Below are positions 5,329-5,676 of a DNA stretch of 7,537 bases, piece after piece. Numbering within the stretch: position 1 is the stretch's first letter; the number at the start of each line of letters is the position of its first letter. A model generated the notes under the pieces. That model was not told the DNA's origin and made no database searches. It saw only the letters and a program-made list of their open reading frames with translations. Position numbers and translations under genes: made by a program. The DNA comes from a virus (taxonomy: Duplodnaviria > Heunggongvirae > Uroviricota > Caudoviricetes). The stretch lies in IMG/VR virus record IMGVR_UViG_2537562231_000016. One strand, given 5' to 3'.

Positions 5329-5420
5329 GGATCATTAAGCCTGTCTCTGATAGGCTCATTCTGCTTTTGCGCAAAGCAGTGGGCCTGAGGTTTGCTTGTG
5401 AACCCAACGCATGAGCAGAT

Positions 5421-5451
5421 GGCTGGTGGGTGCCCCTAACACCCACCAGCC
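5421..5451. promoter_or_regulatory. Perfect 12-bp inverted repeat GGCTGGTGGGTG-N7-CACCCACCAGCC about 95 bp upstream of the methyltransferase start; candidate operator or leader-RNA hairpin
   Basis: Arms are exact reverse complements, read directly. Lies in the intergenic region between the small winged-helix gene and the methyltransferase. Confidence 0.35.
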
Positions 5452-5464
5452 GCCCATTTACCAC

Positions 5465-5492
5465 AAATAAAAAAGCCTTCACTGCGGAAGGC
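5465..5492 (-). terminator. Putative intrinsic terminator overlapping the stop of the small winged-helix gene (GCCTTC-actgcg-GAAGGC hairpin plus TTTTTTATTT on the minus strand)
   Basis: 6-bp stem at 5475-5492 and minus-strand T-tract from 5474 to 5465, read directly. Confidence 0.4.
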
Positions 5493-5676
5493 GTCTGTAA
5501 CAACCGAACTGATAGTCTGCCAGACCCGCCATAACCAGCTGGGTCAGTATTAACTGGCAGCGTTCGCGTGAAAGGTAAGTATTCTGCGCTATCTCCCCGA
5601 CTGTCGCCGGTTCGGTAACGCTTAATTCATTAAACACCACTCTGGCGGTTTCTGTCATATCCTGCTGTTTTAGCAT
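5479..5676 (-). CDS. Small winged-helix / FaeA-like putative DNA-binding protein (65 aa), function unknown
   Basis: Track ORF 5479..5763 (94 aa); I place the start at the internal ATG 5676..5674 (MLKQQDMTETARVVFNELSVTEPATVGEIAQNTYLSRERCQLILTQLVMAGLADYQFGCYRRLPQ) because AAGGAAAAAG lies 5-8 nt upstream. The pattern TVGEIAQNTYLSRERCQLILTQLVMAGLA looks like an HTH recognition region. Family assignment is by eye only. Confidence 0.5.
   Translation of the reverse strand: MLKQQDMTETARVVFNELSVTEPATVGEIAQNTYLSRERCQLILTQLVMAGLADYQFGCYRRLPQ

Follow-up and report, generated by a model that had tools for sequence, protein, structure and literature searches.

C-proteins such as C.PvuII, C.AhdI and C.Esp1396I are Xre/HTH_3 proteins of ~70–100 amino acids (aa); the C-box is found upstream of the C gene, and it is mainly the restriction gene whose expression these proteins time. 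In phage Mu, com overlaps mom and encodes a zinc-finger RNA-binding protein, Com, which unmasks the start of mom. Here we compare these and other described systems with a locus in the virus record IMGVR_UViG_2537562231_000016 (IMG/VR; Caudoviricetes), a stretch of DNA of 7,537 nucleotides (nt) that was analysed over its whole length and is referred to below as the window; coordinates are window positions, and every gene is read on the minus strand. The locus consists of a small gene of 198 nt encoding a 65-aa winged-helix protein (5676–5479), a spacer of exactly 150 nt between this gene and the ATG of the next (5478–5329), and a gene for an orphan DNA methyltransferase of 349 aa (5328–4279; PF01555). 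An earlier note, made from the sequence alone, had described the 65-aa open reading frame (ORF), a terminator hairpin over its stop codon and the 150-nt spacer, and all three were recovered on the minus strand. The note had offered two readings of the arrangement, a controller/operator pair or a structured 5′ leader. Covariation, wobble pairs and the predicted folding energy bore out the leader, whereas a bulge in the repeat of most relatives and stems that have been rewritten beside identical proteins spoke against the operator. We consider it probable that the spacer encodes a conserved RNA leader which acts in cis as a post-transcriptional gate on expression of the prophage orphan adenine methyltransferase.

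The resemblance to C-protein systems lies in a small protein of DNA-binding type encoded beside a methyltransferase gene, in a palindrome nearby, and in the presumed timing of expression of a DNA-modifying enzyme. However, the protein of the window is a winged helix, the repeat lies downstream of its gene and behaves as an RNA stem, a restriction gene is lacking, and the repeat does not track the protein. By analogy with com–mom, the locus would place a toxic DNA-modification gene in a late transcript, behind a small upstream ORF and an RNA structure at a poorly exposed start; unlike com–mom, it has a 65-aa winged helix with two cysteines, a leader of ~140 nt with five helices, and RNA binding that is putative. 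As in riboswitches and other structured leaders, for example those for S-adenosylmethionine (SAM) and S-adenosylhomocysteine (SAH), a multi-helix covarying 5′ leader contains alternative pairings that share a strand and a 3′ helix that abuts the start, but here the leader has no sense-strand match in Rfam and was found only on prophage methyltransferase genes. With M.EcoGI and M.EcoGII (PMC5778455) the window shares a 349-aa beta-class enzyme carried on lambdoid prophages, and with the morons of lambdoid late operons (the stx region; StxS, PMC7547250) a position after Q, PR′ and a terminator and before tRNA genes (and, in Stx phages, before stx).

The RNA leader of the methyltransferase transcript

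Comparative analysis established a conserved structured RNA leader in the predicted methyltransferase mRNA (5329–5460, minus strand; model R1, 138 positions, extending into the ATG). Between genera whose small proteins have diverged to 53% identity and whose methyltransferases to 62–80%, the spacer can still be aligned at nearly every base, and it is more conserved than the genes that flank it. Conservation of the leader extends over Enterobacteriaceae, Morganellaceae and a more distant clade, with compensatory or wobble changes that preserve the helices. Folding of the leader RNA, a check that the earlier note had suggested, came out in favour of structure: the minimum free energy (MFE) of the 184-nt leader was −72.7 kcal/mol, compared with −56.1 ± 4.1 kcal/mol for shuffled sequences (z = −4.0). 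A covariance model was built from a hand-drawn structure with helices P1–P5, and it returned a single match per locus, at 85–165 bits for the leaders of Enterobacteriaceae and Morganellaceae; three weaker full-length matches scored 69 (L213), 101 (L022) and 97 (L023) bits.

Covariation was counted in a narrow set of 73 sequences and a broad set of 50 sequences, with 500 shuffles. The proposed structure left 96% of cells paired in the narrow set and 88% in the broad set, compared with 32–43% and 33–48%, respectively, in controls with a slid register. Base pairs showing double changes numbered 12 in the narrow set, where shuffles gave 2.6 ± 1.1 and none of the 500 reached 12, and 17 in the broad set (13.6 ± 1.2 in shuffles; 1 of 500). 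The number of double-change cells was 39 in the narrow set against 10.5 ± 2.4 in shuffles, and 128 in the broad set against 51 ± 5 (0 of 500 in both cases). Resolved by helix in the broad set, double changes were found in 7 of the 12 pairs of P2, 3 of the 8 pairs of P3 and 4 of the 7 pairs of P5. Pairs were frequently G·U or U·G, one of them near-invariant in P5, which means that the structure forms only on the sense RNA strand. An antisense RNA was considered and rejected, since the many G·U pairs would be C·A mismatches on the opposite strand. When the whole window was searched against Rfam 15 (4227 families) at E ≤ 1, no sense-strand match to the leader was found; the sole match within 5329–5478 was a sub-threshold one on the opposite strand, to P26 of Pseudomonas (24 bits, gathering score 36; E = 0.11).

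The leader is also tied to the gene that follows it. A scan of viral contigs with a 22-nt leader pattern matched more than 120 contigs, and in every locus with downstream sequence the methyltransferase ATG follows the pattern by 73–79 nt (nearly always 74), a constant spacing that links the leader to the methyltransferase. Coding capacity offers no explanation for this conservation. The AUG in AAAUGGGCGG opens a 33-codon ORF (5355–5456; MGGWWVL...) with tandem Trp codons inside the P2 stem, and nearly every clade retains this AUG together with the GUGAA before it (both are missing in the distant L215, L221 and L227). A conserved upstream ORF was ruled out because the frame is stopped at codon 8 in most relatives, by a UAG in the P2 loop, and encodes different peptides in other clades.

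The 5′ strand of P1, UGGGC (5456–5452), has two alternative partners. In P1b it pairs with GCCCA (5384–5380) and closes a three-way junction P1b/P2/P3; in P1a, AUGGG(C) from 5457 pairs with GCUCAU (5416–5411) and extends P2. The two helices share the AUGGGC strand and are mutually exclusive. P1b was 99.6% paired with one double change; P1a, paired throughout (100%), showed two double changes as well as two single-side changes consistent with the helix. RNAalifold favoured P1b when given the narrow alignment and P1a when given the broad alignment. The P3 hairpin, UCUGCU ... AGCAAA (5419–5414/5396–5391), has a loop with a highly conserved GG(U)UCAC and contains the best covarying pair of the leader (CG 33, AU 23, UG 6 and UA 3 in the narrow set); in other clades it is rewritten as UUUACCCGU/ACGGAUAAA and UUUGCCUG/CAGGCAAA. 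Pairing of the 5′ GUGAA with CCAUUCGC was tried and set aside: it fits the distant clade, but in Enterobacteriaceae the covariation there tracks the P3 partner.

P4 is the hairpin CTGCTTT-tgcgc-AAAGCAG (5379–5373/5367–5361), which the earlier note had pointed out and a repeat search located; it is conserved and mostly invariant, with double changes in two pairs. P5, AAUGAGCC ... GGCUUAAU (5360–5353/5341–5334), is followed by GAUC (5333–5330) and the AUG at 5328. Read from the sequence, no Shine–Dalgarno (SD) sequence precedes the methyltransferase AUG in any clade. RNAalifold also proposed pairing of GGUCA, in the loop of P3, with UGAUC, which lies at −8 to −4 relative to the start codon. This possible long-range helix is 95% paired and shows single-side changes only (G·U to A-U). 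The DNA at the same place carries a GATC (Dam) site (5330–5333, −6 to −3 of the methyltransferase start), which is conserved in Enterobacteriaceae and Morganellaceae and is replaced by ATCGAT in the distant clade.

In that clade (L214–L228) the leader is shorter (~95 nt) and without P3 and P1b; a P2-like hairpin is present, and the small winged-helix ORF (..RCQLLLTQFCLAGL..) is kept with its stop codon in a hairpin loop. The same leaders hold a conserved GGUGAAAUG that is able to pair with UUCACC/CAUUCGCC after P2, and a P5-like hairpin that shows a compensatory change (UGCUG/CAGUA versus UGCUA/UAGUA).

Two exclusive helices on the AUGGGC strand, both ~100% paired, are a feature that a metabolite riboswitch would share: the P1/P2/P3 junction would bind a small molecule, for which SAM and SAH are guesses, and P1a/P1b would form the expression platform. 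The near-invariance of loop and junction nucleotides and the end of the leader at the translation start would suit such a device. However, no SAM, SAH or other Rfam riboswitch was matched at E ≤ 1, the leader of the distant clade is much shorter and has neither P3 nor P1b, and riboswitches on phage DNA methyltransferase genes are, to our knowledge, without precedent; we regard this explanation as quite improbable. A plainer account would have P2 and its neighbours act only in stability or processing (as an RNase III site), as a 5′ stabilizer or as insulating elements. P2 is indeed long, GC-rich and perfect (12–14 bp, or ~20 bp together with P1a in the MFE fold), it lies directly after a terminator in all contexts, and no other helix is as well supported, the remainder of the leader varying less. 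Passive hairpins would nevertheless leave unexplained 140 nt of near-invariant sequence, the covariation of P3 and P5 and the fixed spacing to the AUG, and they appear improbable. A leader that gates expression of the methyltransferase is more likely than either of these two alternatives.

The 12-bp inverted repeat and the small winged-helix gene

P2 (GGCUGGUGGGUG-uuagggg-CACCCACCAGCC; 5451–5440/5432–5421) is the perfect 12-bp inverted repeat with a 7-nt spacer on which the earlier note had based its operator. The repeat search located it as GGCTGGTGGGTG/CACCCACCAGCC, with arms at 5421–5432 and 5440–5451 that are 100% complementary and 7 nt apart, 28–58 nt downstream of the stop codon of the small gene. 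Perfect repeats of 12 bp with a loop of 3–10 nt number one in the window and were seen in only 0.7% of 300 dinucleotide-preserving shuffles. A role as an intrinsic terminator was rejected: there is no U-tract, the stem being followed on the sense strand by AUCUGCUCAUG, and the terminator scan called the hairpins T1, beyond the small gene on its 5′ side, and T2, at the small-gene stop codon, but not this stem.

The repeat could act as DNA, with a dimer of the winged-helix protein bound to the palindrome at 5421–5451 and controlling a methyltransferase promoter within the spacer. Adjacency of the two genes in 23 of 24 species loci, a fold typical of DNA-binding regulators, a repeat that is perfect in the window and improbable by chance, and the RefSeq name of TrmB-family transcriptional regulator would all be expected of such a pair. 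However, the repeat in other genomes has the properties of a stem rather than of a dyad. The hairpin recurs in relatives, but only in the E. coli lineage is it a perfect palindrome: the right arm in most Enterobacteriaceae has 13 nt (CACCCGGCCAGCC) instead of 12, which creates a one-nucleotide bulge. In phiP27 and an Stx2k phage the right-arm changes are all C-to-T or A-to-G transitions, which keep G·U or U·G pairs on the sense transcript and break the DNA palindrome. In Morganellaceae and more distant phages P2 is rewritten yet complementary (GACUGUAAAAGUG/CACUCUUACAGUC, GACAGUGAGGAUG/CAUCCCCACUGUC and GACCGAUGAGUG/CACACAUCGGUC), and G·U pairs are many. Replacement of both P2 and P3 by other, still complementary sequences was seen in Morganellaceae and in L202 and L213.

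The repeat also fails to follow the protein. Identical or near-identical small proteins are found with unrelated P2 stems (L181 versus L202, L155 versus L157, L167 versus L170), the centre of the stem and the loop included, and when co-variation between the recognition helix of the protein and P2 was sought, independence was found. The occurrence of the same proteins with unrelated stems speaks against recognition of the repeat by its sequence, in DNA and in RNA alike; judged by these comparisons, the target of the small protein is not the P2 stem sequence. Leaders moreover persist without the small gene, and the small gene persists without the methyltransferase in two phages: phiSTEC1575-Stx2k retains the small gene, T2 and P2 in front of a different gene, and in PhiR5_1, which has no methyltransferase, the small gene is accompanied by the left arm of the repeat alone.

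A promoter for such an operator is also wanting, a consensus scan of 5478–5329 having found no sigma-70-like promoter. A 10-mer, TGTGGTAAAT, occurs both at 5880–5871, in the −10 region of the probable PR′, and at 5466–5457, on the 5′ edge of the leader just behind T2. The latter copy appears in relatives as TGTGAAAAT, TGTGGAAAT or TGTGAAAT, with the form TGTG(R)AAAT, and it was dropped as an extended −10 promoter because the relatives lack a conserved A at −11. A Pfam search found no HTH_3 domain in the small protein, no restriction gene is present, and the repeat stands downstream of the regulator gene; a C-protein-like DNA operator model fails four defining features. Taken together, the repeat behaves as an RNA stem and is most likely not a protein-binding DNA operator, and there is very little likelihood that the protein and the palindrome form a controller/operator pair. 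For annotation, the corrected logic is that a small helix–turn–helix gene with a palindrome does not imply a repressor and its operator.

The small gene itself is a genuine conserved gene. Its 65-aa ORF (MLKQQDMTE...YRRLPQ) is nested in a longer, mechanically called ORF of 94 aa that starts with GTG, and RefSeq annotates the 198-nt version. Lack of conservation of this ORF would, by the earlier note, have spoken against its reading; 334 homologues of the protein were detected, relatives in 24 species-representative genomes of Enterobacterales being 53–98% identical; the protein also matches phrog_331 (E = 1.4e-37), a large PHROG family without assigned function. Differences among homologues fall at codon positions 1, 2 and 3 in the numbers 4042, 3549 and 8668, and the residues of the invariant stretch QLILTQLVMAGL are encoded by 2–7 different codons each. 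The excess of third-position differences and the varied codons for invariant residues show that selection acts on the protein.

The winged-helix fold that the earlier note had suspected is supported by structure prediction. An AlphaFold2 model with a predicted local distance difference test (pLDDT) score of 89.8 contains helices at residues 4–16, 26–33 and 37–49 and strands at 53–56 and 59–62, that is, a three-helix bundle followed by the beta-hairpin wing of a winged helix. Its Foldseek neighbours are the DNA-binding winged helices of IclR (N-terminal domains) and MarR, with template modelling (TM) scores of ~0.8, and also the N-terminal winged helix of SAM-dependent O-methyltransferases and the winged helices of SelB (TM 0.74–0.76). 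A PDB sequence search with a profile of the small protein gave weak matches (E = 0.06) to the N-terminal winged helix of O-methyltransferases, and the likeness found by profile and by Foldseek is suggestive, not decisive. Pfam matches to TrmB, MarR_2 and HTH_24 were all below the curated cut-offs (TrmB was best, with 18.0 against 25.6 bits), and an NCBIfam search gave no match. RefSeq names the protein either 'hypothetical protein' or 'TrmB family transcriptional regulator'.

The helix-3 motif RCQL(I/L)LTQ(L/F) is near-invariant across all clades, in a protein that otherwise drifts; together with independence from the P2 stem, this suggests a conserved target elsewhere. One candidate, on sequence grounds, is a conserved promoter-like motif 5′ of the small gene, CTTGCTG-N10-AAGAGTTATTGGTGTGTCAC (5701–5738, minus strand). 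Its family consensus, CTTGCTG-N10-YCAGAGTTAYMTGTRTG, recurs in all three clades, in 102 distinct upstream regions, and it invariably comes soon after a terminator. The motif can be written TTGCTG-17 bp-TAYNTG, in which the usual T at −7 is missing, and it has no clear dyad; the consensus promoter scan did not call it at 5738–5701. It resembles a weak promoter and is a possible promoter/operator of the small gene, and hence of the operon.

The association of the small gene with the leader is close, but the gene is dispensable for the linkage between leader and methyltransferase. A methyltransferase homologue follows the small gene by 142–154 nt in 23 of the 24 species loci, in one of which (L025) the small ORF is frameshifted, and the small gene is immediately 5′ of the leader in ~85–90% of loci, in all three clades. 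About 10 loci have the leader and the methyltransferase without the small gene; in L061, L100 and L045 the leader directly follows PR′–tR′, and the small gene is absent. The same leader is also preceded by two very different classes of small protein, 85% and 53% identical to that of the window. The small protein is a real, usually co-inherited partner. Two rearranged loci were also noted. L047 (about 3560–3640), one of the ~10 loci just mentioned, holds a deletion remnant in which most of the small gene is lost and a T2-like hairpin and the full leader are kept, and in L204 (about 1366–1506) the upstream promoter-like motif is fused to the 3′ half of P4, with loss of the small gene and P1–P3.

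Hairpin T2 (GCCTTC-cgcagt-GAAGGC followed by the T-tract TTTTTTATTT; 5465–5492, minus strand, hairpin 5492–5475) was called by the terminator scan between the two genes, and the TGA stop codon of the small gene (5481–5479) lies in or beside its loop. In Enterobacteriaceae the hairpin is preserved by compensatory changes with the stop codon in the loop. A good U-tract is found mainly in E. coli versions, and Morganellaceae have no hairpin at this position.

Such co-inheritance would be expected if the small protein bound the leader RNA and exposed the methyltransferase start, acting from the same transcript as a translational activator or repressor, for which Com of phage Mu is the precedent. 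The position of the small gene directly 5′ of the leader, with no intervening hairpin or terminator in Morganellaceae, a start codon without an SD sequence flanked by P5, and the invariance of the helix-3 motif amid drift, which fits a conserved nucleic-acid target, are compatible with such a role, as is the presence among the structural neighbours of SelB winged helices, which bind the SECIS RNA hairpin. However, some loci carry leader and methyltransferase but no small gene, E. coli versions have a good terminator between the two genes, and in L202 the P2 stem and loop are replaced while the protein is unchanged, so that P2 is not the specific site. The protein has no RNA-binding signature, a zinc-finger pattern was not found in it (only two cysteines are conserved), and the fold alone fits binding of either RNA or DNA. 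On balance, action of the small protein on the leader is doubtful.

The methyltransferase and gating of its expression

The gene behind the leader (4279–5328) encodes an orphan beta-class N6/N4 DNA methyltransferase of 349 aa (PF01555, E = 2.3e-45), with DPPY at residues 35–38 and FMGSG, matching FxGxG, at 310–314. No restriction endonuclease gene lies beside it in the window or in annotated relatives. A PDB search found no structure of M.EcoGII, the nearest chains being 9c3u and 8urk (both 'Methyltransferase') and M.RsrI. The enzyme is 95% identical to that of phage 1720a-02, which is very similar to M.EcoGII, a 349-aa non-specific adenine methyltransferase (Murray et al., PMC5778455). It probably belongs to the M.EcoGI/M.EcoGII family and, via its identity to the 1720a-02 enzyme, is predicted to methylate adenines non-specifically. 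M.EcoGI and M.EcoGII are reported to be silent in the lysogen and to harm the cell when expressed constitutively (PMC5778455); a homologue of M.EcoGI was found to be untranscribed (Forde et al., PMC4659465).

The earlier note did not recognize either the small protein or the repeat as described before for methyltransferases of Stx phages. This was mistaken for the small gene, which is annotated and is mentioned in passing in PMC8456039, where the segment is called 'a transcriptional regulator and a DNA methylase', and it was correct for the RNA. The region upstream of the methyltransferase is not discussed in PMC5778455, in which the word 'upstream' is absent, and no description of the leader was found in the literature searched; the ~140-base RNA is apparently undescribed.

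According to the proposed mechanism, terminators T1 and T2 would keep the methyltransferase transcriptionally silent in the lysogen. The leader would fold either as the three-way junction (P1b/P2/P3) or as one long hairpin (P1a + P2), with P4 and P5 following in both cases, and the 3′ end of P5 and the possible GGUCA/UGAUC pairing would cover the region before the SD-less AUG. The leader would thereby serve as a post-transcriptional gate on translation initiation, and possibly on mRNA stability, and the methyltransferase would be made only at the right time and level after induction. Such gating fits because constitutive expression of the closely related M.EcoGII harms the cell. From the lack of an SD sequence, the position of P5, the possible pairing between loop and start, and the alternative P1 helices, we infer that the leader controls translation and that it switches between two folds.

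A more specific proposal is that the RNA represents a new class of switch, in which exchange between P1a + P2 and P1b/P2/P3 gates translation in response to a trans-acting factor, a metabolite or the methyltransferase itself. We advance this only tentatively and consider it rather unlikely. The most attractive trigger in such a switch would be the co-encoded winged-helix protein acting on the RNA, by analogy with Com of Mu.

Several considerations weigh against a leader that gates the methyltransferase. The alignments used for counting were fitted to the model and favour the proposed structure, the relatedness of the sequences inflates the shuffle statistics, and conserved copies are favoured in the viral set because it was gathered by a pattern that lies within the leader. 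A large part of the leader is near-invariant and hence carries little covariation information, and because variation is so low, P1, P4 and the long-range helix rest on few or no compensatory events. The extreme conservation may reflect an additional constraint, for example binding of a protein or ligand or a signal at the level of DNA. Finally, the connection to M.EcoGII runs via the statement on the 1720a-02 enzyme in PMC5778455.

Enzymes of the M.EcoGI/M.EcoGII group are a widely used reagent for chromatin footprinting. A structured leader with alternative folds and an SD-less start provides a concrete candidate for the control by which the phage turns the enzyme off and on, and it would add a new RNA family to the databases.

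Late-operon setting and neighbouring genes

In the order of transcription, the window begins with a gene for a DUF968 protein (7440–7108), followed by RusA (7095–6721) and a Q antiterminator of 273 aa (6724–5903; PF03589, E = 1e-49). Just after the Q gene lies a probable late promoter PR′ (5858–5875, minus strand), with a −10 element TAAATT (5875–5870) and a pause-like element AACGAT (5863–5858). We take the sequence after Q (TGTGGTAAATTTGCTCTAACGATGGG) to resemble the lambda PR′ with its pause element (TAAATT ... AACGATGGG); the consensus promoter scan made no call at this candidate. The terminator scan placed T1 (CCCGCC-gcct-GGCGGG + T6) at 5820–5799, with its hairpin at 5820–5805, and T1 is probably tR′. 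In other genera a terminator of differing sequence occupies the T1 position. In phages with other Q types homology starts exactly at T1 (query positions 141/142), which indicates that the segment from T1 through the methyltransferase moves as one module. The unit thus has the order Q, PR′, T1, small gene, T2, leader, methyltransferase and tRNA genes within the late operon of a lambdoid prophage.

The segment 5250–5960 (711 nt) had matches in 2490 of 5426 complete E. coli genomes and was at least 80% covered in 1280 of them. It is found in many Stx2 phages between Q and stx, with a homology to Stx2 phages, including L23/L24 of phiP27, of 90–95%, and it extends to prophages of Salmonella, Klebsiella, Citrobacter, Providencia and others. 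Because the unit is part of the transcript that carries stx in Shiga toxin (Stx) phages, its terminators and RNA structures could affect toxin expression.

Directly 3′ of the methyltransferase are three tRNA genes (4229–3980, minus strand) with the anticodons CAT, TCG and TCT; the first is tRNA-Ile/ileZ by the RefSeq annotation of relatives, and the other two are both Arg. The same trio of tRNAs stands 5′ of stx in Stx phages. Between these genes and a large esterase-like ORF, at the position that stx has in Stx phages, is a strong Rfam match to the small RNA (sRNA) STnc100 (3714–3903, minus strand; 132 bits, gathering score 47, E = 8e-30); a 2026 preprint reports frequent STnc100 matches near prophage Pas sRNAs. 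The large ORF (623 aa, 1236–3107, minus strand) is 53% identical to a PhiR5_1 'unknown protein encoded within prophage CP-933V', and it is probably the esterase-like protein that is common downstream of stx. A holin-like ORF also lies further downstream of the methyltransferase and tRNA genes, and a 111-aa ORF on the plus strand (3353–3688) had no Pfam match. At the low-coordinate end of the window, an ORF on the plus strand (76–342, within the region 18–342) presumably corresponds to the C-terminal part of the IS1 transposase InsB, which it resembles, and on that assumption the lysis region of the prophage may be interrupted.

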